From a virus: DNA of 64,000 nucleotides. The notes beneath the pieces were generated by a model that saw only the letters and a list, made by a program, of their open reading frames with translations, had not been told where the DNA came from and searched no databases. Shown in pieces: positions 2,696-57,343 of this stretch. Both the position numbers and the translations under genes were made by a program. Numbering within the stretch: position 1 is the stretch's first letter; each line of letters begins with the position of its first letter. The stretch lies in the IMG/VR virus record IMGVR_UViG_3300023198_000559, positions 15,996-79,995 of that record, one strand, 5' to 3'.

Positions 2696-3760
2696 TTATT
2701 GTTTAGTTAAACGGGCGTAGTCCTGGCTGGTCATTCTCTCTGGAAACTCTTCAAACATACTAGCACCTCCTATAAATCTAAGAGCTGCACGTTTATTTGT
2801 ATTTCCATTTCTATTCTTAAGAATGTGCGCGGACACGAACCATGATTTTAATTGTGTTATATCATATACTGATGTACCTACATTTACTGTCTCTACTTGG
2901 TATCTTACTGGATCCCATAGACCAACAATTACATTTGCATCCTTCGTAGTACGTTTACTATCTTCAAAGTCTCTAAGCATGGGAGTTTTCTGTCCGTGCC
3001 TTTGTCTTTGAATATCGGAGTTATCTGCATTGAATTGCTGGATAATTATAGGAGTGTGTTGACATATATTTCTAAAGGTTAAGGATATCTTAGATATTCT
3101 ATCAATAGACTGCTTGTATGATTGACCTTGTTCTGTTTCAGCTAAGTTAATTGTGTCAACAATGCCTACAGTTAATAACTGTGGATTGTTTAGAGTATAC
3201 TCTCCTAACCTAGAGACTGCCATCGAGCCATCATCTTTTGCAAATTTGCCAACCTTTCTATAATGAGTCAGTAAGACATCATGGTAGAAAGTAGGTGTTA
3301 TCTGATCTGCTACAACTATTAGTTTCTTTTCAAAATCTTCAAAATATTTTCTTTTACTCTCTACTAATTTCAGCTCCTCAGGTGTTAAGTAATAGCCTTT
3401 TCTAAAGCCCATTATCTTATCATATGGTATCATCCGTTTGTGATCTTTATAGATTTTCCGGATGATAGCATTAATCATATTCTCTGAGGAAGTAATCTCC
3501 ATACTAAAATCTATAAATTGTACGTCTAAAACACTGTTATCATTAATCTTCTTATAATAATCGTAAACAGCATACATATGTTGGTCCCGGGCGTATTTAG
3601 TCTTACCTACGCCAGTCTCCGCACCAATTAAATAGTACGTAGACCTTCGGGTTCCATATGTATACTCTGTAAGTTTAGGACAGTTCTCCATTGGAACACC
3701 AATATTCTTTCCGGACATTCCCTCAGCAATGAGGTCTATCGCTCCATCAAATATTGACAT
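2696..3760 (-). CDS. dnaB: DnaB-like (SF4) replicative helicase
   Basis: GAETGVGKT Walker A, FSME, IVDTINL, IIQQFN, RDFEDS, DANVIVGL, ILKNRNG. Confidence 0.85.
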   Translation of the reverse strand: MSIFDGAIDLIAEGMSGKNIGVPMENCPKLTEYTYGTRRSTYYLIGAETGVGKTKYARDQHMYAVYDYYKKINDNSVLDVQFIDFSMEITSSENMINAIIRKIYKDHKRMIPYDKIMGFRKGYYLTPEELKLVESKRKYFEDFEKKLIVVADQITPTFYHDVLLTHYRKVGKFAKDDGSMAVSRLGEYTLNNPQLLTVGIVDTINLAETEQGQSYKQSIDRISKISLTFRNICQHTPIIIQQFNADNSDIQRQRHGQKTPMLRDFEDSKRTTKDANVIVGLWDPVRYQVETVNVGTSVYDITQLKSWFVSAHILKNRNGNTNKRAALRFIGGASMFEEFPERMTSQDYARLTKQ

Positions 3761-4164
3761 TAATCTTCCCAAATAACTGGTTTAACTTCACGGTTTTCCA
3801 GGGCTGTTTCCCATACATTGTTCTCAAAGTAGTGTTTAATGGTTACGGGGTATTCTGTTTCTTTATAATACTTCTTAGTCACTTCGACTAATTCAGCTCT
3901 ACTTACTTTAGCAAGTACTCTTAAATACATCTTACCAATCTTGTCAGTAACATATTTTACAGTATACTTACCACCTGAAGGGGATATCACTTGAAATGGA
4001 ATCTCTATATCTACACAGAATTCTTTCAGTGCAGCTTTGGGAGATCCCATGTCTTCAGCGACAGCCTTAAGCTTATCAGTTAAGTAAAATACCCCACTAA
4101 TACTCTTTATAAGCTTATTTTTCTCCAGGTAATCTATTATTTGTATTTTACTTAATCCTTCCAT
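3760..4164 (-). CDS. Hypothetical protein
   Basis: 134-aa ORF, translationally coupled to the helicase. Confidence 0.6.
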   Translation of the reverse strand: MEGLSKIQIIDYLEKNKLIKSISGVFYLTDKLKAVAEDMGSPKAALKEFCVDIEIPFQVISPSGGKYTVKYVTDKIGKMYLRVLAKVSRAELVEVTKKYYKETEYPVTIKHYFENNVWETALENREVKPVIWED

Positions 4165-4346
4165 TATAAAATTCTAAGAAATTGATTTTCAGATTTGAGC
4201 ACGTAGTCATTGAAAGCATCTTGAAATTCTTGCTTTTTGTATACTACACTAAGCTCTTTAAATGTTTCATCTGATAAATCTATTACATCCTTTACTTTAT
4301 TTCCAACAGCTTTTGCTACTTCTGCATTTAATACATAATACTTCAT
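4164..4346 (-). CDS. Hypothetical protein
   Basis: 60-aa ORF with stop/start overlap. Confidence 0.55.
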   Translation of the reverse strand: MKYYVLNAEVAKAVGNKVKDVIDLSDETFKELSVVYKKQEFQDAFNDYVLKSENQFLRIL

Positions 4347-41614: not shown

Positions 41615-44600
41615 ATGACAAACCCTAAAGACCTTGTTAAAAGTTTAAACGCTGCTGATACTTTACCTGATCCAAAAACACAAACGCCGGAACAGGTTGT
41701 AAAAGAGTTGAATGCTCTTCCGGACTATGGTCCAGGACGAGTATCTCAAGGTAGTGCTATTATAGATTCTACAAAAGGAATTGATCATAGCTTTCTTGAT
41801 GTAGAGACTCCATTTGGTATTTCTTTACCTGAACAACGAGCTAAGAACCAAACTACTACAGATAAATGGTTATCTGGTGGTATTAAAGGTTTAAGTACGT
41901 TTGTTACTGCTACTGGTCAAACAGCAGGAGCTGTAGGTGGTGGTATTGCTGCAACTGCAATGATGGCTTTAGGAAATGATTTTGATTCTGACTTAATGTT
42001 TAAGAACCCTGTTCTTGACTTTTTTGCTAAGTGGAATGAAACAGTAAAAGAGCGTAACCCTAATTATTACTCTGAAGCAGAAGTGAATGCTTCTGTTATA
42101 GCAGGTATGGGTACAGCTAACTTCTGGTCTGATAAATTTCTAGATGGTGTAGGTTTTATGGCCTCTGCTATTATGACTGGTTATGGGGCTGCTAAGTTTG
42201 GAGCACAACTAGGTATTAATGTAGCTGGTAAAATAGGTTCCGGGTTTAATACTCTACAAGCTGCATTGGTAGGTAGAACAGGTGAGTCTGCTATTGAAGC
42301 TAATGATGCGTACGAACAAACACTAGAGAAACTAAAAGCTTCTAGACTCCTAGGAGAACATAATCTTACAGATGAGGAAATAGAAGACAGAGCTAAAGAC
42401 GCTAGAGCTGCTACGTTTGGATTTAACATGGCGATAGCAGTAACTGACGCGTATCAATTTGGTAAGATCTTCAAGACTATCGAGGGTCAAGCAGTTAAGA
42501 GAAGTCTGTTTGGTGGTTCTAGAGTAGGACATGCTGCAGAACAAGTACTTATAGAATCTCAAGAAGAGAACTATCAGTTGGCTGTAGCTGACATGGCTAT
42601 TAATATGGCTAATAATGTAACTGCTAAAGGTACGAATGCTAACGCACGAGACTACTTTAATAATGTAGTTGGTGGTATGATGGATAACTTCAGTACTAAA
42701 GAAGGACAAGAATCAATGTTACTTGGTGGTCTTCTTGGTGGAGGTATGGGTCTAGCAATGCATTCAAATGATCGTACTAAGCAAATGAATAGGAACGTTC
42801 CTGAGGAAATCAAGAAACGTAATAATAAATTAATGTCCGTATTCAATAAGGATGTGGATGCAAATTACTTAGAAAGGCTCGCCGCTACTCAAAATGATGG
42901 TATCGTAGAAGGCCTGGCTAAGAATCTACAGTTAATAAACCTTACTCTATCTAAGATATCAGAAGGTACTTACGACGAGTTCATCACAGAATTAGATGAG
43001 ATGGCTAAGCAAACTCCGGAGCAGTTCAAGGAGATTGGTGTTACAGTAACTGCGAAAGATATTAAACAACAACATTCAGATGCTAAAAATCTAATAGAGA
43101 ACTACAAAGCATTATATGACGCTATGGATCCTAAGGTCTTTGACTTGAAACAAGATAACGCGTATGAAGCTATTAAGGCTAATCTATTCTATGTTACTGC
43201 TGCACGTAATGACATCAGAACACAGTTACAACAAGTAGGCCCTTATGTAGCTGCTGTAAATGTAGCTTTAAAAGTTGAGCCTGAATTAGCCATGGACGAA
43301 CCTTTTCAAGTAGGTAAAGACCAGGTAATCCCACAGAAGGTAATAGAAGCTCAAGAGAAATTAGTAGAGAACAGAGATGCTCTTACTAAATATATTAATA
43401 GAGTTAAGACCGGTAAGAAATTACAGAAAGAAATAGTTGATGCGTATAACCAAGCACAAGAGGTTCCAACTCCTGTTCCTACGCCAAAGCCTAAAGCAGA
43501 CCCTGAAATAGGGAGTATCCAAAAAGTTGGTAAAGAAGGAGTTCCTTCTAAGAATATCCCTTTCACAAAAGCTGTTCAGCTTGAGGATGGTTCTACTAAT
43601 TATACTATAACTGACACTGAAGGTTTAGAGACTATTATCAATGACCAAAAAGATAGCTACACCTTAGTTGGTTACAAAGGAGAATTCAGAGGTGAACGCC
43701 AGGAGTTAAACAATAACGAAAGGTATAACTTCCTGCAAGTATTCGAAAACTTTGTCTCAGAAGAAGATCTTAGTAGACTCCAAGAAATTCTATCTTTCCC
43801 TAACTGGAAAGAGAATATTCGTATTACCGCGAATAAGCAAAATACAGGTAACGTTCTAGAAAGGATTAAAAACTTCATTGCCCAAAAAGGCACAACTACA
43901 GATATAGACAATGTTTATAGAACTGCAGTAGTAGGAGATAATCCCATGTACTTAGTTCCTTCATCTTTCATTCAAATTGAAATGCAGATTAAAGATAAGG
44001 ATGGCAACTGGACTCGCATGGGACACCCTGGAGCAGACCCTTTCAAGTGGAGAGATAAAAATGGTGTTGCATTGAACTTCTCTAGTATGACACTAGAAGA
44101 ATTTAAAGACAAATTTGTATTCAAACAAGGTACAGCCACTGCAGGAGTTTTAATAGAGCCTACACAAGCTAGTCTTGAACAACTTCAGAGAGAGCAAAAG
44201 GAATCTATTAAGGTTTATAATGCTATTAATGACTGGTACGAAAAGAATGGTTTCTCAGATTTACGAGAGATTCCAGAAGGTTTCGTAAAAATGTTTACAC
44301 GCAAGATGGGATTTGCTTTCACCAAAGTAGGTGAATGGACTAAGGCTAAAGACTTTGAGTTAGACGAAGGTATTACTAGTATTCTAAGAGATAATAATGA
44401 GAATTATGTTATCATTGATATGAATACCGGTAGAAGTATTGTAGATGGTAAGAAGTATGACGTACCTGCTCACATTAGAAAAGAGCTGGGTAATACTCGT
44501 TACATTACTAAAGTAAACCATCCAACAATCGATGACCTTTATATCAAAGCAGCACCTGGACAATTAGATGGCCAGGACGCTCGAGACTTCATTGAGCAAC

Positions 44601-47600
44601 TTACTAAAGTAAGAGAGAATCCTACACAGGATGGTGCTGACGCATTAAACGAAATTCTATATGTAGCTTATCAAGGCAACTGGAACTTTAAGTTTGATGT
44701 GCATACAATCAAAGGAACGAAGACTCCTAAGTTAGTGGTGGACGTATTTAATGACCAGTTAGGAGAATCCTATAAGAATATTGCCCTTCCTATTAATATA
44801 AGTTCTCTTGGAACACTTCAAAGTCTTATTGAAGATGGAACGGATGGAGCTATTACTTTAGGGCGATTCGCTTTCAAGAAGCATATTGCGAAAGATAAAC
44901 TTACCAACGAAGAGGTTGAGAGGAAATTCACATTTAATACTACACCGGAAATTGTTAACGGGATTAATATTCAGTTTAAATTCAATGAACAAGCTCCAGT
45001 AGAATCTGTAACTAAAACTCCTGCAAAGGATGTTTATGATGATACAGAGAGAGGTGACTTTGTACGTGCAAAAGCTAAAGTAGAAACAGAAGATAAAGCT
45101 AAAGCTCAAACTGCTGTTGGAAAGAAAGGTAATAATGGTCCAGTCTTCAAACAATCTACAGAAAAAGCTAGTGAGGTAATTCATTACAACCAGGCTTTAA
45201 AATGGTTAGAAAAGATTCTACCTAAAGGTATCTCAGTAGCAGATATGGCTACAGTTACAGAGAACTTAGAGACTCAAGGATATACCTGGGGAATGTTCGC
45301 TAACAAAGTTATTTATCTATCTACACAGGCACAGCAAGGAACTGAAGCTCACGAGGCTTTCCACGCTATCTTTAGAATAATGCTTACAGAAGGCGAACGT
45401 GCTAAGTTATATACTATAGCTCAAGCTAAGTGGGGGAAAGGAAAAACTCCTCTTTTCTACGAAGAGAAAATGGCTGACGAATTCATGGCCTGGAAGAATG
45501 CTAGGAATCGTAGAGTATCAGGTGTATTACAGTCCTTCTTTAATAAAATTACACAGTTTGCTAAGTTCATTACCGGTAGAGAATCTGAACTAGAAAGACT
45601 CTTCAGAAAGATTGATACTGGAGCCTTTACTAATAAGGAACTCCTTAATCATCAAACACATGTATACGATGCTCCGGTATACAAATTACTTAACGGAGGA
45701 GATCACTATAAGATGAGTGTAGTAAAGAGTGAGAACATTCTTTACAGTACAGCTGCTTATGTACTTGAGCAACTAAACAACAAGATGGAATATACCAACA
45801 TCCCTAATGCAGTTAAGAAACTCACTACAGACTATATGTTTGCACAGAGTACTAACTATGACATTGACATGGATGTTAATAAAGAAATTATCGCCGCTTC
45901 TGATGATAAGTACATCAAAGAGAAAATGGCGGAACTAGAAGCTATCTATCAGAATCAAGAAAACATTGACTTGGTTGTAGCTGAAGTACTTAAACTTGTA
46001 CGTACATATGAAATTCGTTCTATCGATACTATCATAGACGAACAAGATGACACTGAAGAATCCTTCAAAGCTTTTGATATCCATCAAGGTGAGCACGGAG
46101 GTTGGGCCAATGTAGCTAAAGAGATTAAGCAGTTTATTGCTTTGACTACCTACAATACCCTGGATGAGTTTAATAAACACATTACTAAGTCAATTGATTT
46201 TGTTTTAGTCTATGGTGCACTTCAAAGAAGACTTGCTGGTAAGAGTAGAGCTCAACAATTATTATCCTTCGAGTCATTCGCTCGTACAGACCAGCAGGTC
46301 AATGCACTATGGAATAAGTTCTTAGTTGAAACCGGGTATGACCCAACAACTGGAACTAAGACTAATGAGATGATGTTCAACAGATTCTTGAACACCTTTG
46401 AATTAGAGAGTATGGACTACATGCAGTCTCTAAGAGTAAAGGACAAGGATGGTAGTCTTAAGCTGATTAATATGTCAGCTAATAGAGCTAACGCTGAAGT
46501 TATTCATTTCGAGAATTGGGAAAGAAAAGCTAGTGAATACAATATCTTTGCAGACCAAAGTAAGAAAGACGATTTAGCAGAAGAATTAATCTTTGACGCA
46601 GCTGTTGGATTTGGAGTAGATACTTCAGGTGTAAACAAGCAAAACTCAATGGAGTTCTTTGAAGAGCACATACGTCAAATTATAAGTACGTTTGGAAAAC
46701 TGGGTATTGACTTATCTGAAGGTTATGTTTTAGAGTCTCTTGAAGAGGTTCATAATATTGGAACTAAACTCGAAGGAGTTGACTCTGATAGACAATACAG
46801 AATGTTAGAAGAGCAAGACCTTCTTGAAATTGCAAATCTTCTTAAAAAGGGAGACAATATCTTTGCTCAAAAAATAGATAAGGATGGAAACATACTTGAG
46901 AAGACAGGTGCTCGTGGTCGATTAATAGCTATGGCCTCTGGAGATATTCACTATCGTACAGATATCTATGATGCTAACTTCCAGGATGCTGAGAACAAGT
47001 CACGTTACGCATTCGTATATCCTTCTTATATTCTAACTAAGATTAGAGACAAACACAATATTACTGAAGCGGAACTTCAAGAATTAAAAGAAGATCCATA
47101 TTTCAAATACAATCCTTTAGTACAGTCTGCTAAATCTGCGGATTGGTTCCTAAACCTTAAAGCAGCATTCACTGGAGATTACAGGGATACTGTCGAAGAT
47201 AAGGATGGAAAGACTTTCAAAAGTACCACTCCGAAAGACTTGCTATTATCGTGGTATGGGTTGTACAATAAGAATAAAGAGTATTCATATTATACTCCAA
47301 TGATTTATGAAGCCAAGTCAACTTCTATTTCTGTCAATCTACCTAATAATGTAAATGATGGCAAAAGTTGGGTGGACAAGAAAGGTGAGGTAACTAATGA
47401 GACAATCAAGTATTTCATTAATACAATGTTCATGCAGGAGCATGCTCGTATTAAGGGCGATACCGGGATTACATTCATTGAACGTAAGAAGAACCCATGG
47501 GTAACTCTTCCGTATTTTAATGGCCTAAAGAACAAGGGAAACTATATTACTGAATACTCTCAACAAGACATCATCGATAATAAAGATGGTGTAAGAATAA

Positions 47601-50600
47601 CTATTGGTAATGCAATCAAAGAAAACCTTAATACTGAAATCACAGCTCACCAAACTGAGTTGATGAAGTATGGTATCATTACTAATGATAAGGAGAATAA
47701 ACTTTTAGACTCTGACATAGAGAACATAACTGAGTACACAGCTGATTACTATATCAACGACTTAGTTAACTCAACTGCTATCTCACAAATTATCCAGGGA
47801 GACCTGGCCAAGGCTAAGAATCCTTTCGATAGGGTTAAGCGTAATGGTGGTGAACTAGCATATGGTACTCACTTTGGTGAAGGTACTTATAAGGTTGTAT
47901 ACAAGACTGAGGATAAGAGAAAGTCCGATGGCATAGACAGAGACGACGCTCAGGTGTACGTAAGTATGAAGAGACGTATAGAGCAACTTGACAGACTTGG
48001 ACGTCTTACAGATGAAACTAGAGCTATCCTTCAAAAGGTAGCGGATGGACAACCTTTAATAGTCAATGACAAAATAGATGAGTATGCTAAAATAGATTTA
48101 CTTCCTTTAAAGACTGTACACTATGGTGACCAGGATGGTTACATGGTTTATCACAAAATGTCAGAGACTGTATTAACAAGAGATTTAACTTCTAGGTTAT
48201 CGACGAAGGATGGTGTAAGTGTTTGGGTAGCTAAAAAAGGTAAAGAGAAATTGCACAACATGCTTGAGTTCATGGAGGCTAATGAGGTAGATAGTATTGT
48301 TACACTATCTGCATCTAAACTTGAGAATCCTTCTGAAGCTCTTACAGACGATGAGTTTGTAAATGGTATCCCTACAATGGGTGAACGTTTTACAGACCTT
48401 GACAATCGTTATCTTCGTCTGCAAGTTGAAACACATTCAGGTAAAGAGAAGATTGTATCAGGTACTCAAATGGCTCAGCTGATTGATCTCTTATATGAGA
48501 CAAGTCCCGGGCTAAAGGATAGATATTACCAGTTACTAGCTGAAACTCGTGCAGAAGACTTCACTATTACGGAATTCATGTCCAAGAACGCGACTCTCTT
48601 AGCAAACAAATTAGTAGACAGTATTGAAACTTCCGGTGGAGATGCACAAATAGTAGAACTACTTACTGTAGAGAATGGAGAGTTTAAATACAACTTTAAC
48701 TTACCACACGTAGCAGAGAAGTTAGAACAACTACTGTTGTCACATTTCTCTAAAGGAGTACTACAACAAAAGGTACCCGGGTATAAATTAACGTTGATGT
48801 CTTCTTCTGGATACATGATAGAAGATAGCGAAACGGGTGAAGCAAGAGAACTTAAAACTCACCAGATATCTGAAGATGGAAAGGTTATTGAATTAGCTGA
48901 AGCTGCTATGACTCGTCGTGCTCTTCGTAAAATCTTAGGCCCTAAGGCTGATACTGCTAGTATTGAAGAAATAAATAAAGATTTACTCGAGATGGTAGGT
49001 ACACGTATTCCTACACAAGCTCACCACTCTATGATACCATTTAAGGTAGTAGAGTTTTTACCTGAATACTATGGAGATACTATTATCGCACCTGCGGGAA
49101 TTGTGGAGCTATCTGGCGCTGACTATGATATTGATTCACTATTTGTTTATAGAAAGGCCTTTTTCATGGACGCAGAGAAGAATGTACATGTATATGGTGA
49201 AGCTACTACACAGAAAGATAAGTACGCGGAGTATCTAAATCACCACATGTCTAATCTTTCTATAGCTAGAACGCGTAGAAATAGGGAAGCATCTTATCCT
49301 GGCAGATCTGTTGAGGAGATTCGTCAAGAAGTATTTGCAGAGTATGGTTTAATAACCAACTTTGATGCCTATGTTGCTAAAGGATTACCTAGTAATAATA
49401 GTAATAGAAACAACGAAATAGTAGATACATACTTAACTATTCTAACAGATCCTTCTGTTGAAGATATGTTTGAACCTGCTACTCTTACTTTAATAGAGAA
49501 GGCGGTTGCGGATGTCCACGATACAATTCGTAATAAAGGAAATGAAAACGCTACTGTTAATCACTATGGGTCTAATGGAAAACTTAAGGCTCATACTGCG
49601 ACCTCTACCGGTAAACGAAATGTTGGGCCAGTAGCTTTTATTAATAATGTCTCTGCCTTCATGACGAAGAGCAAGGTTAAACTCACAGATGCTATCGAAT
49701 TCCTTGGGAAGGAGTATGGTGACTATGGTATAACTACGGAGAAGGATATAGAAGTTTACAAAGAAGATGGTCAATGGAAGACACGAGAAGCGACTAGAGA
49801 GAATCAATCTAAGATTAACTCTTTATCTACACTTGTATCAGCTATGACAGATGACGCTAAGCACGGGTTCTCTGCTAAACTAAACCTCGAAGAATTCAAT
49901 CTCGGGTTGTTTGCTAGTATGATATCTTTAGGTATAGGATTTAATAGAACAATGTTATTCTCTTCACAGGATGTACTTGCTGAATTGAGTTCAGAAATTA
50001 AGTCTTCCGGAATACCTCACGAAGCTGCTCTGGCCGCTAAGATAGTTGAGTATGAGAAGAAGGCTAATATGGATGCCATCCCTTCATTGAAAGCACAAGA
50101 CCTGGTGGATAACTTACTTCCAGGCGAAAGAACTATTGAAAGAGATGTAGCAGTATTACATTTATATGATAGTATGCAAGAGACTACAGCTAAGTTCCAA
50201 GCAGTTGGTACAATTGTATCTCTAAATAAAGGAGCAGAAGTAGTGAATGTTATAGAACTTAACGAGAAAATAAAACGTGTAAATGAAATAGATGCTAAAG
50301 AGAATGGCAAATATCCTTTCTATACTAATCTTTGGGAATCTCTTATGTCTAACGCGAATACTTCTACTAACATGAGAATTCTTGATAGTATTAAAAGTCA
50401 AATGTCTAGATGGTTTATATCAGGTATAGGTACTTATGATAATATAATGGAAATATTGGATCCATCTTTGAAGAAGTTTCTAAAGACTCAAGATAAAACT
50501 ACTGTTGATAGAGCTATTAAATCTTTCTTAACAGCTAGAGGTTATCAAAGAATGTTAGAGAAACATGGTTCTGACATGAAAATATCAGATTTTAATGCTC

Positions 50601-53600
50601 TTATAGAGCCCGGGATTAAGAACGAGTTAATCGAAAAGACCCTGGCCAAGCAAATAGAGGAGCTTTCTAATCAAGAAGATAAGCAAGCTGCTAAAGATTT
50701 TAACAATAATGAATTCATAAAAATACTACGCACACAGTTTAAATTTACTGCTGATGGTATACTTAATGCAAAGAACGAATCTGAGTTAGACTTAGTAACG
50801 TCGAACATGCGTATCAAGAGAAACCCTCAGACAATAGATAGAATTACAAATGGGTTTGTAGAACTTAGTCTAGACCATCCTGAGTTAGCTAAGAACTTAT
50901 TCAGGTATGCCATGGCTAAAGATAGTCTACAGTTTAATAGTACTAGTTTCCTTAAATTTTTAGATGTTACTTATTTAGCAGTAGCGTCAGAAGGATTGGA
51001 CTCTATCATGGATGACCCTTCAGGTAATGCAGGGATGGAGTTTGATTTTGTAAAACTGTTTGCGGGATACAGTCCTAATAATACTCTATTCCCTGCAAAG
51101 AATTCTCAGTACTTAAAGTCTGTAGGTGTATTTGATATCAAAGACGGTACATTTACTCTTAAGTTACCGGAGGATAGAAAAGGTCTTGAACTACCTCCAT
51201 ATATCTTTAAAACTAAAGGAGGACAAATCTACATGAAGGAAAGTGCTGCAGGTAATATTTGGACACAACTAGAGTCTTTTGGTGATAAGTACCAACTTCT
51301 ATATCATATGTTGTATGAGGAAGTTACTGGTGCAGGTATTAAAAGTATATCGCCAGAAGTTAAGGTAGACAAAGCTCAGGAGATAGTTCCTAAGGCTAAA
51401 GTAACACCTACTATACCTACCGTGAAACCTCCGTCTAAAGAGATGAGCCAGGAGAAAGGTAATAGATTAGAATATGATAATACCTCAGTTCCAATTGAGT
51501 TCACACTTGGAGAAGAACAGGCTCAGGCTTTAGAAGGTCTGCTTGATTTTGTAACTAAGGAGAGCGGTATATCTAAAACACTACAAGGTTCTGCAGGTAC
51601 CGGTAAGACAACTATTATCTCTTTCATGGAAAGGATAATTAAAAAAGGAGGCTATCCACACAATGTTCTTTACATGGCGCCTACGCACGCAGCTACTGCT
51701 GTACTAGGATTTGAAACTATGAAGAGTGGTAACAGGTATCTTCCTGCTACTATCGCTAGTAGTTTACGCGATGACTACGAAGGTCCTGGCAAAACATTTG
51801 CTAAGAAGATGCAGGATAGGTTTAGTGATTTCAAACCACCTCTTATTATTGTAGACGAATCGTCTATGTTAAGAGAGGATGAAATTGACGGACTGGAACA
51901 AGCTGTAGAGAAATTTGGCGGTAAGATAATCTTTATGGGAGATATCGCTCAGATACCTCATGTAGATCCACGTAACCCTGCAGTTAAACAAGTATCCAAA
52001 GTATTCTCTGCTCCGGACAAGATAGTACTGAATGAAGTGTATCGTCAGTCTAAGGGTCCACTCTTGAATCTCCTTACTAAGATTCGACGTAATACACAAT
52101 TTGTAAATTACAAAATAGCAAAAGTATTTGAATCACTTAAGTTCTTACCTGCTAAGGATTTCTCTGTAGAGATTATTGAGGATATAAAGAATAACAGTGA
52201 AAACACAGTGTTTATTAGTTATACTAACAAGTCTGTAAAAGGAGCTAACGCGCGAGCACGCGAGATATTAGGTAAAGGACGTTACACTGAAATAGGTGAT
52301 TCTATATTAGGATACATAGGATATCAAAACAAACAGATAGAGAAACAACATCTTGCTAATTCCATTAAGTATACTCTAACCGGTATCAAAGATGGTCCTA
52401 GTGATGGTGCAAAAATCTTAAATGTTGAATCTGAGAATCTAGGTAAACTACAAGATGGTGGTTTACAAGGAGTTAGACGTGAGGCAACAACTGTATACTA
52501 TCAACTAGAGAACGATGATTCTTTACAATTTGATTTATCTCAAGAACAGCTTGCTGAAAATAATAGACAAGTATCTTCTGTATTTAAAGAACTGTATGAA
52601 TTAGTATTAAGAAAAGCGGATACGAATATGTCCTGGAGGTATTTTACGGAATCAAAAAGATCTATTACTGAGAAGTTAGCTTCTGTAGAATTAGGAGATA
52701 CTTATATGTATGACCATATTCAAGACAAGATGGTGAAGTTTAATGCACAAGGGTTCCAACAACTTAGAAGTCAGTTACCTATTAGGTTAGGCAATGAATT
52801 TAAGTTTGAGAAAGGAATTGATTATGGACATGCTATTACTATCCATAAGAGTCAAGGTATGACAGTTGATAATGTATACTTCGACTTAAGTTCATTAACC
52901 GGTATAAGAGATACTGAGATTCATGACAGAGGACGTCAGATAAACAGTGAGAAGAATAGTATGTACTATGTAGGTATGTCACGAGCAGCTAAGAAACTTG
53001 TAGTTAACGCTACCGGTATCCCGTTCGACGAAACCTTTGATACTACTAAAGATGTTTCTGCAGAAGTAGAACCAACTCTTGCTCCACCTATTGAGCCAGG
53101 GAATAAGTTTCTAGCTACTAAACCTTTAAAGATGACCTTAGCAAATGAAGACAAGATTAAGAAAGGTGAAAAGAAAGCAACTAGTCGAACATTCGAATTA
53201 GCGCCAGGTAAGTACGTATTGCCTAAGGGTACTGTTATACAACTTAAAGGAGGGTTTGCTGAAAGTATAGATAAATTAGATGATCCTAATTTATGGGCAC
53301 GTATGGAAGGGTTTGAGGATTTAGAAGACTTTAAAAAGAATGCTGCTTTCAAACACACAAAAGAATTTATAGATGGTAAAGGTCCTGGGTTATATATTTA
53401 CAAACTACAAGTTGTAGAGGAAACCCCTATTGTTGAATATAAAGGTCCTAGTGCATTCCCTAAAACTAAAGCGGAAGCTCTAGCTAAGAAGGTGAGAAAA
53501 TCTAAGAATATACTTTCGAAAAAAGATGGTTTAGATACCTTAATATCGTACAACTTTGGTAAGGTTATTAAGAGGCTCTCTAAGGCCTTCGGCATCAAAG

Positions 53601-56600
53601 TGGAGTATGTATATCAACCAGACGCGAACTGGTCAGGAAGGTATCAGCATGGAGTCGTACAGCTTAATCTAGCCCTCCTCCAGAGTGACACTCCGTTCCA
53701 CGAATTTGCCCACCCTTTTGTGGAGGCAATTCGAATACAGAACAAAGCTTTATATGATAAGTTAGTTGCAGAGATTAAGAAAGAAGGTACGATACTTGCA
53801 AAAGTAATCGAAGAATACCCTGAACTTGATGATGCAGGTAGAATAGATGAAGCTATCACTACAGCAATTGGTATGTATGGGGCTAAAATCGCTAACATGC
53901 CTAAGACTTTAGTAGAGAAGATAAAAGAATTCCTTCAAGAGATTATGCGATTCATCAAAGGATTGTTTACTCCAGGGACTATCTTCTTGCCTTCAGAGCT
54001 TGACCCTAATACAACACTTCAAGACTTAGGTGCTATCATGGCTAAGAATACTCAGGTATTCGCATTAGGCGAACTAACTGATGAACAAGCTAAGTATCAA
54101 AAACAACAGGCCTCTAAACTTACAGTTGACCAGGACCACGTAGGTCAGGTTGCGAATAAGACTAAGACTTCTTCATTGAGAGAAGTGGATCCAGACCTTG
54201 AACATAAAGTGGGTGACAAATTGGCAGTGTATGCTAATAGTAGAAGCCAGGGTATGATTGTTGAATTGACTGCTGTGAAGACACTTAAAAGCCTTAAAGA
54301 TATAGATAAGAATAAATTCGCAGAGAGTTTAGGTTATAAGGACTGGGCGGACTTTACAGAACAAAATAAATACGCGCAAAAGGATTCTCCGGCTGCTCAA
54401 AACTTTCCAGCACTCTACAATTTTCTAAAAGGAGAAGGTGAGATGCAATGGCTACAGTATGAGATGGTTGACATTGTACCTATTGGAGCTGAGAGTTATC
54501 TTGAAGATAAAATCAAGAGAATAAAAACAGTAGTTAAAAAGCAAATTGATAGATACAACTCTATTATAACAAAGAAAGGAAGTAGTGAAGAGAAGATCAA
54601 ATTGTTTGTTAAACGTAGAGAACGTTTATTAAAGACTATTGATGCTATTGATGATGCTTCAGGTGTAGCGAGTTACATTGAAGACGCGAAAAAAGATTTA
54701 GCAGCAGCTAAGTCAGAGTTGAAAGAACTTATGAATCAGATAGGTAACGTGAGAAACCTTACTGATAGGAAAAGAAAGAAAGCTATCAATGACTTGCATT
54801 ACATACAAGAATTTATTGTTGCTTATGATGTAATCGATAAAATGTCGAGAGACGAAATTGAGGACCATTTAGGTGATACAGAATTAGCTAAGCTATTTGG
54901 TGAAGCTAAGAATGATCTTGATAGTATTAAGAAAAGTATAGACAAAACAGCGATACCTCTACTAGCTTCTTGGTTGTTAACGTTTAGTGATATAGACGTA
55001 GATAAAGCTAATGCATACTTTGAGGACCAGATTACTAGAATCCAGGACAACCCTAGAAAATCTGATGGTGATAAAGCTTCTTTAATTTCCAAACTGATGG
55101 AAAAGAAAGCAGAAATGGTTCTTACACAAAGCAGTTTAGAAGAGCAATTACGTCATGCTGTTAGAGATGTAGGTTTTGGTTCTCTTTGGTTAGAGGCTGC
55201 TATATCTTCATCAGACCAGGTTACTTCCTTATTCGCGAAAGCAGTTAAGTTCCAAGAGTTCCAGGCGAACTTCCTGGATAGAATGAATCAACAGAAAATT
55301 GGTATTGCTCTTGCCGCGTTCGAAAAAGAACAAGGTAAGGCAGGTAATAACATAGAGAAGTATTACGGAGAACTTATACAAGAAGTTAACATTGAATTAG
55401 GAAGAGACTTTGATGGTTCTCCGCTAATTGAGAAGAGGTTAGTATTCAGAGATGTAGAAGATGTTAAGACACCGGCGGGCAAAGAACTGTTAAGTGTTCT
55501 TAAAGAAGTATATGGTGAAGCACAGGAACTACTTCCGGAGTCTCAAAACATGAAGGTGGAAATTACAAATTCTAAAGAGATTGTAGATTCGTTACCTTTC
55601 GTTAGAAGATCTGGTGCAGATAGAATAAAATCAAATGGTCTTTGGAATACTATTAAGTCAGAGTTCCAGGAAATATACAAGCCTCTTTCTACAGATACTG
55701 ATTATGGATATACCACTGAAGCGGGAGAAGTTATACGCTCAGTACCTATTCATTATACTAAACGTGGCGTTGATGACAGAGCTATGGATAATAAAGATGT
55801 TACAAAAGATATTGTAGACTCTGTATTGAAGTTCTCTCAGATGGCTAATAAGTATAATATGTTTAAAGCTATTCAGTCTGAAGTTGAGTTTATGGAAGGT
55901 GCTATTGAAGATAGAACAGTTCCAGAAATTACACCTGCAGGTAATAAGAAGTTTGATAAAGTAGCGAACATCTTTGGATTAAAAGAGTTTGTAAAATCTG
56001 ATACTGCTAGAGTAAATAAAAGACTACAAGAGTTTATCAATATGACCTTCTATGGTCAGCATGAAAAACCTAATATTGAAACCCTATTTGGGCACGAAAT
56101 AGATACTAACAAGCTTTTAAACTTTTTAGGTAAATGGACTGGTTTCACTACACTTGCGTTAAACTTCCTATCAGCTCTTAATAACGTGATACTTGGTAAC
56201 TTCTATATGTTCCAAGAATCTGTAGCTAGGCAAAACTTTGGAGATCTTAAACTAAACCTTGCAGAAGGGAAGGCGATCTATTATAAAGGAGCAGCTAGAA
56301 TGGTGGGAGATATTGGAAAAATTGAGGGTCTTTCTAAAGAAACTCAGTTAGTAAGAATGTATGATGCAATGCAAGGATCCTTCCGTGACATTTCCGGAGG
56401 CTTTGTTACCGGTAGTAAAATGAAGAAGTTATGGCAGGGAAGTTCTCTGTTTTTTATGAACCATATAGGTGAGCATGAAATGCAAGTATCTAGTTTGTTT
56501 GCAGCTATGGCAGGTCAGAAATTAACCACTAAAGCTGGTGAAGAAATAAATTTATGGGACGCGTACTCTTTAGATGACAAGGGAAACCTTGCATTGAGAG

Positions 56601-57343
56601 ATGATGTTGAGTGGTATGATACAGATGTATTTGCATTCCAGAATAAACTGCACGCAACTAATAAGTCATTGCACGGTAACTATAACGATTTTGATAAGAC
56701 AGTAATGCAGAAGTATACTTTAGGTAGACTTGCGTTAATGTTTAGAAAGTTCATGAGCCCTGGTGTACGTAGAAGGTTTGGTAGGTTGAGTGTAGATAAT
56801 GAACTAAGTGAATTACACGAAGGGTTCTTTGTTACGACAGCTAGACTGCTGCGTAATGAAATGGTTGAGTTAAAGAATTGGTTAACTTTTAAAGAAAACA
56901 ATTTAACAGAACATGAAAAAGCTAATTTAAAGAAGACTATTGCTGAAGTTGGTATGTGGGTTACTACTATGGCCATGTTTGCTGCGGCAGCTGGTTTCTT
57001 AGGAGACGATGATGATAGTTGGGCAGGTGCCCTGGTACTATATGAAATCAAACGTTTACAAACAGAACTTGGTTTCTACTTTAACCCGGCTGAGACATTG
57101 AAGATTATAAAATCTCCTGCGGCTACAACCACAACCATTCAACGTATTATACGTTTGACGGATCAATTAGTACACAGTGTTTATGATCAGGAGTATACAC
57201 ATTATCAAACTTCTGGCCATGGGCATAAGAAAGGAGACAGTAAAGTATGGGACGCTGTAAAAGACCTCGTTCCAGCTGTTCAGGGTATAGAACGAAGTAA
57301 ACACCCCGAAGAAGCAATTAAGTATTTCAATAAACTCTTTTAA
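41615..57343 (+). CDS. Giant virion RNA polymerase polyprotein (5242 aa): TM/cargo region, zincin, RNAP, SF1B helicase, ASCH, zincin, ASCH, C-terminal helical/TM region
   Basis: RIPTQAHHS and GADYDID (aa ~2503) crAss RNAP active site; HEAFH (aa 1246) and HEFAH (aa 4029); GSAGTGKTT / IVDESSM / GDIAQI / TIHKSQG / YVGMSRA helicase motifs. Confidence 0.9.
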   Translation: MTNPKDLVKSLNAADTLPDPKTQTPEQVVKELNALPDYGPGRVSQGSAIIDSTKGIDHSFLDVETPFGISLPEQRAKNQTTTDKWLSGGIKGLSTFVTATGQTAGAVGGGIAATAMMALGNDFDSDLMFKNPVLDFFAKWNETVKERNPNYYSEAEVNASVIAGMGTANFWSDKFLDGVGFMASAIMTGYGAAKFGAQLGINVAGKIGSGFNTLQAALVGRTGESAIEANDAYEQTLEKLKASRLLGEHNLTDEEIEDRAKDARAATFGFNMAIAVTDAYQFGKIFKTIEGQAVKRSLFGGSRVGHAAEQVLIESQEENYQLAVADMAINMANNVTAKGTNANARDYFNNVVGGMMDNFSTKEGQESMLLGGLLGGGMGLAMHSNDRTKQMNRNVPEEIKKRNNKLMSVFNKDVDANYLERLAATQNDGIVEGLAKNLQLINLTLSKISEGTYDEFITELDEMAKQTPEQFKEIGVTVTAKDIKQQHSDAKNLIENYKALYDAMDPKVFDLKQDNAYEAIKANLFYVTAARNDIRTQLQQVGPYVAAVNVALKVEPELAMDEPFQVGKDQVIPQKVIEAQEKLVENRDALTKYINRVKTGKKLQKEIVDAYNQAQEVPTPVPTPKPKADPEIGSIQKVGKEGVPSKNIPFTKAVQLEDGSTNYTITDTEGLETIINDQKDSYTLVGYKGEFRGERQELNNNERYNFLQVFENFVSEEDLSRLQEILSFPNWKENIRITANKQNTGNVLERIKNFIAQKGTTTDIDNVYRTAVVGDNPMYLVPSSFIQIEMQIKDKDGNWTRMGHPGADPFKWRDKNGVALNFSSMTLEEFKDKFVFKQGTATAGVLIEPTQASLEQLQREQKESIKVYNAINDWYEKNGFSDLREIPEGFVKMFTRKMGFAFTKVGEWTKAKDFELDEGITSILRDNNENYVIIDMNTGRSIVDGKKYDVPAHIRKELGNTRYITKVNHPTIDDLYIKAAPGQLDGQDARDFIEQLTKVRENPTQDGADALNEILYVAYQGNWNFKFDVHTIKGTKTPKLVVDVFNDQLGESYKNIALPINISSLGTLQSLIEDGTDGAITLGRFAFKKHIAKDKLTNEEVERKFTFNTTPEIVNGINIQFKFNEQAPVESVTKTPAKDVYDDTERGDFVRAKAKVETEDKAKAQTAVGKKGNNGPVFKQSTEKASEVIHYNQALKWLEKILPKGISVADMATVTENLETQGYTWGMFANKVIYLSTQAQQGTEAHEAFHAIFRIMLTEGERAKLYTIAQAKWGKGKTPLFYEEKMADEFMAWKNARNRRVSGVLQSFFNKITQFAKFITGRESELERLFRKIDTGAFTNKELLNHQTHVYDAPVYKLLNGGDHYKMSVVKSENILYSTAAYVLEQLNNKMEYTNIPNAVKKLTTDYMFAQSTNYDIDMDVNKEIIAASDDKYIKEKMAELEAIYQNQENIDLVVAEVLKLVRTYEIRSIDTIIDEQDDTEESFKAFDIHQGEHGGWANVAKEIKQFIALTTYNTLDEFNKHITKSIDFVLVYGALQRRLAGKSRAQQLLSFESFARTDQQVNALWNKFLVETGYDPTTGTKTNEMMFNRFLNTFELESMDYMQSLRVKDKDGSLKLINMSANRANAEVIHFENWERKASEYNIFADQSKKDDLAEELIFDAAVGFGVDTSGVNKQNSMEFFEEHIRQIISTFGKLGIDLSEGYVLESLEEVHNIGTKLEGVDSDRQYRMLEEQDLLEIANLLKKGDNIFAQKIDKDGNILEKTGARGRLIAMASGDIHYRTDIYDANFQDAENKSRYAFVYPSYILTKIRDKHNITEAELQELKEDPYFKYNPLVQSAKSADWFLNLKAAFTGDYRDTVEDKDGKTFKSTTPKDLLLSWYGLYNKNKEYSYYTPMIYEAKSTSISVNLPNNVNDGKSWVDKKGEVTNETIKYFINTMFMQEHARIKGDTGITFIERKKNPWVTLPYFNGLKNKGNYITEYSQQDIIDNKDGVRITIGNAIKENLNTEITAHQTELMKYGIITNDKENKLLDSDIENITEYTADYYINDLVNSTAISQIIQGDLAKAKNPFDRVKRNGGELAYGTHFGEGTYKVVYKTEDKRKSDGIDRDDAQVYVSMKRRIEQLDRLGRLTDETRAILQKVADGQPLIVNDKIDEYAKIDLLPLKTVHYGDQDGYMVYHKMSETVLTRDLTSRLSTKDGVSVWVAKKGKEKLHNMLEFMEANEVDSIVTLSASKLENPSEALTDDEFVNGIPTMGERFTDLDNRYLRLQVETHSGKEKIVSGTQMAQLIDLLYETSPGLKDRYYQLLAETRAEDFTITEFMSKNATLLANKLVDSIETSGGDAQIVELLTVENGEFKYNFNLPHVAEKLEQLLLSHFSKGVLQQKVPGYKLTLMSSSGYMIEDSETGEARELKTHQISEDGKVIELAEAAMTRRALRKILGPKADTASIEEINKDLLEMVGTRIPTQAHHSMIPFKVVEFLPEYYGDTIIAPAGIVELSGADYDIDSLFVYRKAFFMDAEKNVHVYGEATTQKDKYAEYLNHHMSNLSIARTRRNREASYPGRSVEEIRQEVFAEYGLITNFDAYVAKGLPSNNSNRNNEIVDTYLTILTDPSVEDMFEPATLTLIEKAVADVHDTIRNKGNENATVNHYGSNGKLKAHTATSTGKRNVGPVAFINNVSAFMTKSKVKLTDAIEFLGKEYGDYGITTEKDIEVYKEDGQWKTREATRENQSKINSLSTLVSAMTDDAKHGFSAKLNLEEFNLGLFASMISLGIGFNRTMLFSSQDVLAELSSEIKSSGIPHEAALAAKIVEYEKKANMDAIPSLKAQDLVDNLLPGERTIERDVAVLHLYDSMQETTAKFQAVGTIVSLNKGAEVVNVIELNEKIKRVNEIDAKENGKYPFYTNLWESLMSNANTSTNMRILDSIKSQMSRWFISGIGTYDNIMEILDPSLKKFLKTQDKTTVDRAIKSFLTARGYQRMLEKHGSDMKISDFNALIEPGIKNELIEKTLAKQIEELSNQEDKQAAKDFNNNEFIKILRTQFKFTADGILNAKNESELDLVTSNMRIKRNPQTIDRITNGFVELSLDHPELAKNLFRYAMAKDSLQFNSTSFLKFLDVTYLAVASEGLDSIMDDPSGNAGMEFDFVKLFAGYSPNNTLFPAKNSQYLKSVGVFDIKDGTFTLKLPEDRKGLELPPYIFKTKGGQIYMKESAAGNIWTQLESFGDKYQLLYHMLYEEVTGAGIKSISPEVKVDKAQEIVPKAKVTPTIPTVKPPSKEMSQEKGNRLEYDNTSVPIEFTLGEEQAQALEGLLDFVTKESGISKTLQGSAGTGKTTIISFMERIIKKGGYPHNVLYMAPTHAATAVLGFETMKSGNRYLPATIASSLRDDYEGPGKTFAKKMQDRFSDFKPPLIIVDESSMLREDEIDGLEQAVEKFGGKIIFMGDIAQIPHVDPRNPAVKQVSKVFSAPDKIVLNEVYRQSKGPLLNLLTKIRRNTQFVNYKIAKVFESLKFLPAKDFSVEIIEDIKNNSENTVFISYTNKSVKGANARAREILGKGRYTEIGDSILGYIGYQNKQIEKQHLANSIKYTLTGIKDGPSDGAKILNVESENLGKLQDGGLQGVRREATTVYYQLENDDSLQFDLSQEQLAENNRQVSSVFKELYELVLRKADTNMSWRYFTESKRSITEKLASVELGDTYMYDHIQDKMVKFNAQGFQQLRSQLPIRLGNEFKFEKGIDYGHAITIHKSQGMTVDNVYFDLSSLTGIRDTEIHDRGRQINSEKNSMYYVGMSRAAKKLVVNATGIPFDETFDTTKDVSAEVEPTLAPPIEPGNKFLATKPLKMTLANEDKIKKGEKKATSRTFELAPGKYVLPKGTVIQLKGGFAESIDKLDDPNLWARMEGFEDLEDFKKNAAFKHTKEFIDGKGPGLYIYKLQVVEETPIVEYKGPSAFPKTKAEALAKKVRKSKNILSKKDGLDTLISYNFGKVIKRLSKAFGIKVEYVYQPDANWSGRYQHGVVQLNLALLQSDTPFHEFAHPFVEAIRIQNKALYDKLVAEIKKEGTILAKVIEEYPELDDAGRIDEAITTAIGMYGAKIANMPKTLVEKIKEFLQEIMRFIKGLFTPGTIFLPSELDPNTTLQDLGAIMAKNTQVFALGELTDEQAKYQKQQASKLTVDQDHVGQVANKTKTSSLREVDPDLEHKVGDKLAVYANSRSQGMIVELTAVKTLKSLKDIDKNKFAESLGYKDWADFTEQNKYAQKDSPAAQNFPALYNFLKGEGEMQWLQYEMVDIVPIGAESYLEDKIKRIKTVVKKQIDRYNSIITKKGSSEEKIKLFVKRRERLLKTIDAIDDASGVASYIEDAKKDLAAAKSELKELMNQIGNVRNLTDRKRKKAINDLHYIQEFIVAYDVIDKMSRDEIEDHLGDTELAKLFGEAKNDLDSIKKSIDKTAIPLLASWLLTFSDIDVDKANAYFEDQITRIQDNPRKSDGDKASLISKLMEKKAEMVLTQSSLEEQLRHAVRDVGFGSLWLEAAISSSDQVTSLFAKAVKFQEFQANFLDRMNQQKIGIALAAFEKEQGKAGNNIEKYYGELIQEVNIELGRDFDGSPLIEKRLVFRDVEDVKTPAGKELLSVLKEVYGEAQELLPESQNMKVEITNSKEIVDSLPFVRRSGADRIKSNGLWNTIKSEFQEIYKPLSTDTDYGYTTEAGEVIRSVPIHYTKRGVDDRAMDNKDVTKDIVDSVLKFSQMANKYNMFKAIQSEVEFMEGAIEDRTVPEITPAGNKKFDKVANIFGLKEFVKSDTARVNKRLQEFINMTFYGQHEKPNIETLFGHEIDTNKLLNFLGKWTGFTTLALNFLSALNNVILGNFYMFQESVARQNFGDLKLNLAEGKAIYYKGAARMVGDIGKIEGLSKETQLVRMYDAMQGSFRDISGGFVTGSKMKKLWQGSSLFFMNHIGEHEMQVSSLFAAMAGQKLTTKAGEEINLWDAYSLDDKGNLALRDDVEWYDTDVFAFQNKLHATNKSLHGNYNDFDKTVMQKYTLGRLALMFRKFMSPGVRRRFGRLSVDNELSELHEGFFVTTARLLRNEMVELKNWLTFKENNLTEHEKANLKKTIAEVGMWVTTMAMFAAAAGFLGDDDDSWAGALVLYEIKRLQTELGFYFNPAETLKIIKSPAATTTTIQRIIRLTDQLVHSVYDQEYTHYQTSGHGHKKGDSKVWDAVKDLVPAVQGIERSKHPEEAIKYFNKLF

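Follow-up and report, generated by a model that had tools for sequence, protein, structure and literature searches.

Motif, profile and structure searches indicate that positions 51482-53014 of the DNA analyzed here encode a complete superfamily 1B (SF1B) helicase of the Dda type, which looks catalytically intact and is embedded in a giant protein that also carries a crAss-type RNA polymerase (RNAP). The DNA is a stretch of 64,000 nucleotides (nt), hereafter the window, that corresponds to bases 15996-79995 of the 80-kb IMG/VR contig IMGVR_UViG_3300023198_000559, and the source is a marine crAss-like phage. The giant protein, P0001, is the product of a single open reading frame (ORF) of 5242 amino acids (aa). 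Comparison with its close relatives shows that the helicase, which occupies a slot between the polymerase and second HExxH modules, is exchangeable cargo and does not belong to the polymerase in any fixed way. The giant protein is therefore best read as a “polyvalent” ejected protein that can carry several alternative cargo modules, the helicase among them, and the probability that the helicase serves as an ejected, early-acting accessory enzyme is put at roughly 0.55. The fusion is a recurrent design that is present in hundreds of phages and was found in no paper; what is new here is that the helicase lies in a variable slot.

The full SF1B motif set, comprising motifs Q, I, Ia, II, III, IV, V and VI, falls within aa 3298-3791 of P0001 (Table 1), and every motif listed in the initial annotation of this DNA was found at the residue and base given there. 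That annotation had placed the domain at 51480-53010, a location that holds except that its start is two bases out of frame. The Pfam family AAA_30 matched with an E value of 2.7e-20 and 73.4 bits (cut-off 27), AAA_19 with 51.4 bits (cut-off 25.1) and PIF1 with 32.7 bits (cut-off 25.9), and UvrD_C_2 scored 25.0 bits, slightly below its cut-off of 27.4. PHROG 325, “Dda-like helicase”, spanned the whole module (E 2.5e-59), and phmmer against PDB sequences retrieved Leptospirillum Dda, T4 Dda and many Pif1 proteins. An AlphaFold model built on a 38-sequence alignment reached a predicted local distance difference test (pLDDT) score of 90.3 and a predicted template modeling (pTM) score of 0.88, and its top Foldseek match was T4 Dda (3UPU; E 7e-22; TM 0.59/0.67), followed by DSH9, RecD2 and Pif1. 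Two RecA-like domains, a 1B pin and an SH3-like 2B domain were mapped in the model as read from its secondary structure. The profiles and the model thus bear out the earlier description of a complete Dda/RecD-like helicase. The motifs are invariant or nearly so in the alignment and in 120 fused homologues of 29-45% identity: the Walker lysine, the DE pair, GD..Q and the motif IV arginine are present in 120/120, and HK.QG and SR in about 119/120. Such conservation points to strong purifying selection on an active ATPase.

The window helicase shares with T4 Dda, RecD2, Pif1 and DSH9 all of the motifs, a pin-like hairpin and, in the model, the SH3-like 2B domain, and the best SF1B Foldseek matches to the model are 3UPU, 8JX6 and 3GPL. 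In contrast, its identity to these SF1B relatives is only 18-26%, it exceeds Dda in length by about 70 residues and has a long helical hairpin in 2B, and it is no free protein, being an internal module of a 5242-aa chain encoded in a late operon. Inteins and homing endonucleases usually occupy conserved sites of important genes; a recorded intein/homing-endonuclease domain is found in one fused copy of the helicase (P0077, about aa 3914-4227), with the insertion near motif V, and such domains are also recorded in the stand-alone copies P0142 and P0143.

The polymerase module lies N-terminal to the helicase, and its catalytic DYDID was confirmed at the position noted previously. In tblastn searches, the polymerase region matched the crAssphage “RNAP catalytic subunit” KP06_gp44 (E 1e-19) and 108 records, nearly all of them from crAss-like phages. 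Around the DxDxD it also matched two open frames, one of 2184 aa in phi14:2 (E 4.6e-11), the counterpart of gp66, and one of 2416 aa in crAss001 (E 5.6e-15). The DxDxD thus lies within a gp66/gp44-like segment, as in crAss-type virion RNAPs, and these matches together with the in-frame translation agree with the earlier placement of the helicase inside a virion RNAP protein. A combined polymerase and helicase query in tblastn added only cr50_1, and phmmer with the polymerase region found no match among PDB sequences at E ≤ 1. In the phi14:2 preprint (Drobysheva et al.), gp66 and two neighboring products are virion proteins that are fused as a polyprotein in some phages, and a zincin domain is mentioned but a helicase module is not. 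The phi14:2 virion polymerase transcribes single-stranded or denatured DNA well, native phage DNA weakly and double-stranded M13 DNA not at all, a preference for single-stranded templates that the initial annotation had stated correctly, and its eukaryotic relative QDE-1 requires the helicase QDE-3 and RPA.

The junctions of the helicase were examined with contigs about 88-92% identical to the window, which come from two other marine studies and were placed on 50900-53600. These bridging contigs belong to close relatives, that is, to other phages, and gaps in their cover prove nothing. One of them covers 51340-53091 unbroken, and another covers 50971-51240 and 51340-52005. Because independent assemblies bridge both helicase junctions, the fusion is not an assembly chimera, an artifact that the initial annotation had named as a refutation should reads fail to support the junctions.

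The variable nature of the slot emerges from the relatives of P0001. A search with the polymerase core recovered 38 giant relatives, and AAA_30 was present in 1/38. P0241 and P0242 are 73-80% identical to P0001 over aa 1-3280 and aa 3940-5242, and between these flanks they hold unrelated inserts of 197 and 160 aa, respectively, as against about 650 aa in the window protein. The flanks are joined almost directly in P0245 and P0246, and the inserts of P0243 and P0244, different again, measure 609 and 308 aa. In P0242, the slot likely holds an ART-PolyVal ADP-ribosyltransferase domain (aa 3327-3418), the match being marginal at E 5.7e-7 and 30.8 bits against a cut-off of 31.2. Precomputed Pfam labels likewise give ART-PolyVal for P0243 and P0257. 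The closest 19 proteins in the polymerase part, from 74% down to 25% identity, all lack the helicase (19/19), and the nearest helicases (44-45% identity) belong to giants with only about 25% identity in the polymerase part. Because slot content and ancestry are discordant in this way, a single gain by module exchange is preferred over at least five losses with replacement, and the helicase was most likely gained by module exchange with a distant crAss-like phage.

The edges of the slot are also informative. The window protein has a single copy of the motif P-x-T-K-(A/E)-E-(A/F)-L-A, to the right of the slot (aa 3949-3957), and the motif is duplicated in P0241 (aa 3234 and 3495) and P0242 (aa 3276 and 3439), where the two copies bracket the inserts exactly; it is otherwise nearly absent among 183 giants. 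The duplicated motif may be an in-frame insertion footprint or a repeated cleavage site. Furthermore, 53090-53455 (aa 3826-3947) is skipped in contigs of marine relatives about 90% identical to the window; in one of these (X3), 20 nt stand in place of the 341 skipped nt, so that 321 nt or 107 codons are lost on balance and the frame stays intact. Part of the insert is thus labile even among near relatives. The 122 aa of this segment, which follows the helicase, gave no Pfam match even at E 5. Among the listed differences in the relatives, 22/40 are at third codon positions, a count too partial to be used. P0241 had no match in IMG/VR. In other helicase-bearing giants, an AlkB-type 2-oxoglutarate oxygenase, NADAR and DUF7831 are found directly upstream of the helicase (Table 1), and the precomputed Pfam lists of the best 119 helicase-bearing giants contain NADAR in about 18/119 and AlkB in about 12/119. 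The N-terminus of P0092 is an AAA_33/zeta-toxin-like kinase domain, and P0135 had no close relative among GenBank phages.

Table 1. Features of the giant ORF in the window, and slot neighbors of the helicase in related giants (nt positions refer to the window, aa positions to P0001 unless another protein is named).
Feature	Position	Strand	Basis or detail
Giant ORF P0001, 5242 aa (fused “transcription block”/predicted polyvalent virion protein)	41615..57343	+	stop-free frame, 5242 codons
First HExxH (HEAFH, aa 1246), putative zincin-type metallopeptidase site	45350..45364	+	motif only
crAss-type RNAP module (~aa 1950-3200)	47462..51214	+	DYDID at aa 2503 (nt 49121-49135) and tblastn
Pro/Lys/Thr/Val-rich linker (~aa 3261-3289), left slot edge	51395..51481	+	similarity to P0241, P0242, P0245 and P0246 stops
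Dda-type SF1B helicase module (aa 3290-3800)	51482..53014	+	motifs, Pfam, PHROG, fold
Motif Q, LGEEQAQAL	aa 3298		
Motif I, GSAGTGKTT	aa 3325 (nt 51587)		Walker lysine K3331
Motif Ia, MAPTHAA	aa 3354		
Motif II, IVDESSM	aa 3412		DE 3414-3415
Motif III, GDIAQIPHV	aa 3442		
Motif IV, LNEVYRQ	aa 3472		
YTN	aa 3536		
Motif V, YGHAITIHKSQG	aa 3737		
Motif VI, YVGMSRA	aa 3785		
Acidic/Pro linker and ~120-aa small domain (aa 3801-3947), right part of cassette	53015..53455	+	absent from P0241, P0242, P0245 and P0246
PKTKAEALA motif (aa 3949-3957), first conserved residues right of slot	53459..53485	+	similarity to relatives resumes
Second HExxH (HEFAH, aa 4029)	53699..53713	+	motif; retained in P0241-P0246
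C-terminal region (aa 4704-5242)	55724..57340	+	blastp to 1667-aa cr118_1 ORF, E 1.7e-18
AlkB/NADAR/DUF7831 upstream of helicase	P0005 aa 2346-3351; P0006 aa 2249-3128; P0014 aa 3805-4474		

The same fusion recurs well beyond the window. In GenBank, the ICTV-classified Suoliviridae genomes cr50_1 (MT774375.1; QOR58058.1, 4774 aa) and cr118_1 (MT774379.1; QOR58373.1, 4946 aa) carry the RNAP-helicase fusion in giant proteins for which “DNA helicase; VOG0377” is the sole annotation; in RefSeq, the cr118_1 protein goes under “exonuclease V”. Other crAss polymerase genes bear the label “nuclear pore complex-like protein”. A search limited to lengths of 2883-9174 aa recovered 755 giant proteins with the helicase in common, and in about 113 of the best 119 of them a D[FY]DxD motif and polymerase-region similarity lie N-terminal to it. 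HMMER over 1.84 billion 50%-identity representatives at E ≤ 1e-30 gave 104 matches, of which 77 are at least 1000 aa long (50 of at least 2500 aa and 27 of 1000-2500 aa) and 8 have the size of a stand-alone helicase. The helicase lineage, to judge by these lengths, resides mainly in giant proteins. The reading in the initial annotation is not borne out as it stood in one respect: both rarity of the fusion and a fixed tie to the polymerase are contradicted, since the fusion is present in two GenBank genomes and hundreds of giants and is missing from the closest relatives. Its statement that the fusion was not known to have been characterized agrees with a literature search that found no paper describing the fusion, in which Yutin et al. 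2021 was covered by its text and its figures may show a helicase box. In the text and legends of that survey that were available, “SF1 helicase” is counted among the conserved crAss genes and placed by a legend with the replication proteins, and that text is silent on a helicase fusion.

The distribution of fused and stand-alone copies bears on what the module does. The fused copy is the only AAA_30 helicase on the 80-kb contig, and cr50_1 and cr118_1 likewise have a fused copy only; in crAssphage and cr127_1, by contrast, the single AAA_30 helicase is a stand-alone gene that adjoins UDG and DNA polymerase. Profile and protein searches found no helicase homologue in crAss001, phi14:2, cr109_1, cr56_1 or the Azobacteroides phage. 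Flavobacterium phage Fpv3, a cultured crAss-like phage of a fish pathogen and a possible laboratory comparison partner, encodes a 4287-aa “virion structural protein” (gp32; L003 24940-37803) that contains DYDID and HEVIH and is without the helicase module. A FastTree phylogeny of 163 helicase domains, with T4-like Dda as the root, places the fused copies together in one large clade (support 0.88), and 16 truly stand-alone genes are nested in this clade as the sister group of three giants. The stand-alone genes of the crAssphage type are a clade apart, and the fused cr118_1 copy joins that clade with weak support. The nested stand-alone genes belong to gut phages of about 97 kb, and one complete genome of this kind (G001) has two paralogous Dda-like helicases that are 44% identical and have intact motifs. 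The stand-alone copy (523 aa; L014 10001-11569, + strand) lies in a recombination/replication block among exonuclease VIII, a Sak4-like annealing protein and dNMP kinase, and the second copy (L014 19655-21451, - strand) ends an 1800-aa ORF in the giant-gene block, which follows a 4056-aa polymerase ORF and overlaps its end by 7 nt (L020 27-17593). Two AAA_30 matches each were also found in G003 and G005. Because G001 keeps both copies, the fused copy would do something that the copy in the replication block does not.

Based on these observations, a possible course of action was proposed for the helicase as an ejected, early-acting accessory enzyme. From the late-operon context and the reported virion orthologues, the window polymerase is inferred to be present in the virion and ejected. 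The giant chain would be a component of the filled head, as are its orthologues in phi14:2 and crAss001, and would enter the cell together with the DNA, where the helicase could be freed by cleavage at the flexible linkers or could stay tethered. Driven by ATP, it would then translocate on one strand of the entering phage DNA with 5'-3' polarity, as established for SF1B enzymes, opening the duplex and clearing it of bound proteins. Single-stranded DNA would thereby be supplied to the co-ejected enzymes, chiefly the polymerase, whose phi14:2 orthologue prefers single-stranded templates, and a 5'-3' motor on the non-template strand would move in the same direction as the polymerase. Provided that the helicase is indeed ejected and acts early, transcription may be the main beneficiary, although we hold this further step only tentatively.

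Several observations weigh against this proposal. Packaging and cleavage of a helicase-bearing protein, whether this one or an orthologue, are inferred, and the contig, with an estimated completeness of 84% (CheckV), is the sole known sequence of its phage. phi14:2 and crAss001, the phages in which the virion polymerase is known to work, have no helicase homologue, and the nearest relatives of the window have no helicase within the polyprotein; because the module is missing both from these relatives and from the model phages, the helicase cannot be a general requirement of the polymerase. A fixed physical coupling is also unlikely in view of G001, in which the helicase and the polymerase are on different ORFs, and of a few giants among the best 119 in which the helicase is near the N-terminus, N-terminal to the polymerase. 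Dda-type helicases require a single-stranded 5' tail for loading, and no such tail is known on the entering genome. Finally, the AlkB, NADAR and DUF7831 neighbors in the slot point to DNA repair or counter-defense no less than to transcription.

A more specific form of the proposal regards the region between the polymerase and the second HExxH as a dedicated “cargo bay” of the ejected polyprotein, which would swap modules by in-frame recombination at the short repeated linker motif. Housed there, the helicase would cooperate in cis with the polymerase, the two forming a transcription machine that unwinds its own template. The contents of such a bay would include the helicase, the ADP-ribosyltransferase, AlkB, NADAR and DUF7831. 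As a joint claim this is rather doubtful; if true, the machine would be a phage counterpart of QDE-1 plus QDE-3, and early transcription would be freed from host factors.

The main rivals to an ejected, early-acting helicase are a replication role and a counter-defense role, which overlap. In the first, which we judge unlikely, the module is simply the Dda equivalent of the phage, serving fork progression, strand exchange or origin opening with no special link to transcription. This would fit the contig, on which it is the sole AAA_30 helicase, as well as cr50_1 and cr118_1 with their fused copy only; the single stand-alone copies of crAssphage and cr127_1 adjoin UDG and DNA polymerase, the fold and the closest solved relatives are those of T4 Dda, the fused cr118_1 copy groups, if weakly, with stand-alone crAss helicases in the tree, and the available legend of Yutin et al. 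2021 groups the “SF1 helicase” with replication proteins. However, both copies are intact in G001 and therefore not redundant, with two AAA_30 matches in G003 and G005 as well, and five complete Crassvirales genomes replicate without any homologue. Moreover, a replication gene located within the late structural operon would yield its product too late, unless the virion brings that product in; on this reading, the helicase would reach the replisome by early ejection or by late release.

The second rival, equally unlikely in our estimate, is that the helicase belongs to a counter-defense or DNA-care cassette, in which it would unwind the incoming DNA or strip host defense proteins from it and so help neighboring de-modification enzymes to undo marks set by the host. 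Dda is an enzyme that displaces bound proteins, and the fast turnover of the slot among close relatives, with the likely ART-PolyVal domain in P0242, a domain type known from polyvalent proteins, resembles that of conflict modules; the AlkB-type oxygenase, NADAR and DUF7831 directly upstream of the helicase in relatives fit the same picture. On the other hand, neither AlkB nor NADAR is recognizable in the window protein, where Pfam is blank after the helicase, most helicase-bearing giants lack a neighbor of the AlkB/NADAR type, and to our knowledge no SF1B helicase acts in counter-defense. Polyvalent proteins with helicases have been described together with P1 DarB (Iyer et al. 2017), and a likeness to DarB, an ejected methylase-helicase that protects DNA in cis, is part of this unlikely reading.

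It is highly improbable that the ejected helicase is a DNA-entry motor that pulls the remaining genome into the cell: enzyme-driven entry is known for T7, and the module would be at the right place and time if ejected, but SF1B helicases travel along single strands and split duplexes rather than reeling in double-stranded DNA, and cell entry proceeds without this module in the nearest relatives and in the model crAss-like phages. Least probable of all is an assembly chimera or a decayed, inactive relic, which the metagenomic origin of the contig might suggest, since both junctions are bridged by contigs from two other studies, the same architecture is found in hundreds of independent proteins, and the catalytic motifs are all intact and conserved in a confidently modeled structure. 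Taken together, the initial interpretation of the fusion was reasonable but over-specific, and it is partly supported.

Among known systems, QDE-1, QDE-3 and RPA of Neurospora offer a likeness of working only: QDE-1 belongs to the same structural family of polymerases, prefers single-stranded DNA and relies on a helicase and a single-strand binding protein, whereas QDE-3 is of RecQ type and a protein of its own, with no SF1B module fused to the polymerase, in a cellular system. The giants of cr50_1 and cr118_1 share the architecture, with an HExxH site, a DFDID polymerase and an SF1B helicase in this order in one ORF of the same gene block. Unlike in the window, their ORF stops after the helicase and a separate gene encodes the module that comes next; their helicases are only 26-28% identical to that of the window. 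The crAss transcription block (gp65-gp66-gp67 of phi14:2 and gp44-gp45 of crAssphage) resembles P0001 in its DxDxD core, its location beside structural genes, the fusion of several block proteins in one chain and its HExxH motifs; in contrast to the window protein, its characterized members have no helicase. Fused block polyproteins are noted by Drobysheva et al. and in the available text of Yutin et al. The polyvalent proteins of Iyer et al. 2017 are giant proteins with shuffled modules that are ejected or transferred with DNA, and their helicases are SWI2/SNF2 types paired with a methylase (P1 DarB) or, rarely, UvrD-like; the N4 virion RNAP, which has a metallopeptidase domain, is also among them. 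The window protein is like them in being very large, multidomain and encoded among packaging genes, in the variation of its domains between close relatives, in its peptidase-like, helicase and (in a relative) ART-PolyVal-like modules, and in the ejection and early action predicted for it. Iyer et al. 2017 make no mention of a Dda-type SF1B helicase in one chain with a two-barrel polymerase, nor of crAss-like phages.

The genomic setting of P0001 is in keeping with this comparison. The ORF starts 3 nt past the preceding gene within the late structural operon. Genes for terminase, portal, major head protein and virion structural proteins precede it on the same strand, and tail-fibre-like genes come after it, so that a large multidomain protein is encoded here among packaging and late genes. 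Across the window protein and its close relatives, the slot holds the helicase, unrelated inserts, an ART-PolyVal-like domain or nothing, as expected of a polyvalent protein. The terminase, portal and major head protein match PHROG families at E 1e-100 to 1e-125, and the head protein is 37-43% identical to those of Suoliviridae (the “delta” group), about 31% to those of Azobacteroides and Flavobacterium crAss-like phages and about 25% to those of crAss001 and crAssphage. The sequencing runs matched, with shares of only 0.05-0.07, point to a marine origin. A megablast search with the giant gene found no match among GenBank phages. The ORF showed no excess of promoter-like or terminator-like sites, and no TAnnTTTG element was found between 49465 and 52801; separate expression of the helicase from an internal promoter was dropped on these grounds. 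The 1667-aa ORF of cr118_1 that matches the C-terminal region is a separate gene after the RNAP-helicase gene, and the window ORF joins into one what cr118_1 keeps as two genes.

Outside the polymerase and helicase modules, few domains could be named. A site equivalent to HEAFH is retained in P0241-P0246, cr50_1 and cr118_1. For the zincin domains mentioned in the initial annotation, the giant protein offers two conserved HExxH motifs as putative sites, and no Pfam peptidase match was found in it. Pfam searches at E ≤ 5 over aa 3826-3947, 3948-4150 and 4151-4300 gave no ASCH or peptidase match, and PHROGs returned nothing for the non-helicase parts of P0001.

The poor activity of the purified phi14:2 polymerase on double-stranded DNA makes it puzzling how an ejected enzyme copes with an incoming double-stranded genome. 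Natural polymerase-helicase fusions and near-identical polyproteins without the helicase provide matched constructs for testing a co-delivered helicase, and the window is a clean natural experiment in which near-identical polyproteins occur with and without it. For annotation, the giant “DNA helicase” genes in reference Crassvirales genomes are virion polymerase polyproteins, and the “SF1 helicase” marker of crAss surveys may sometimes be a fused module and not a replication gene. The variable slot shows that the giant proteins of crAss-like phages evolve like the polyvalent effector proteins of other phages, and it is a place to seek new early-acting or counter-defense enzymes in one of the most abundant phage orders.

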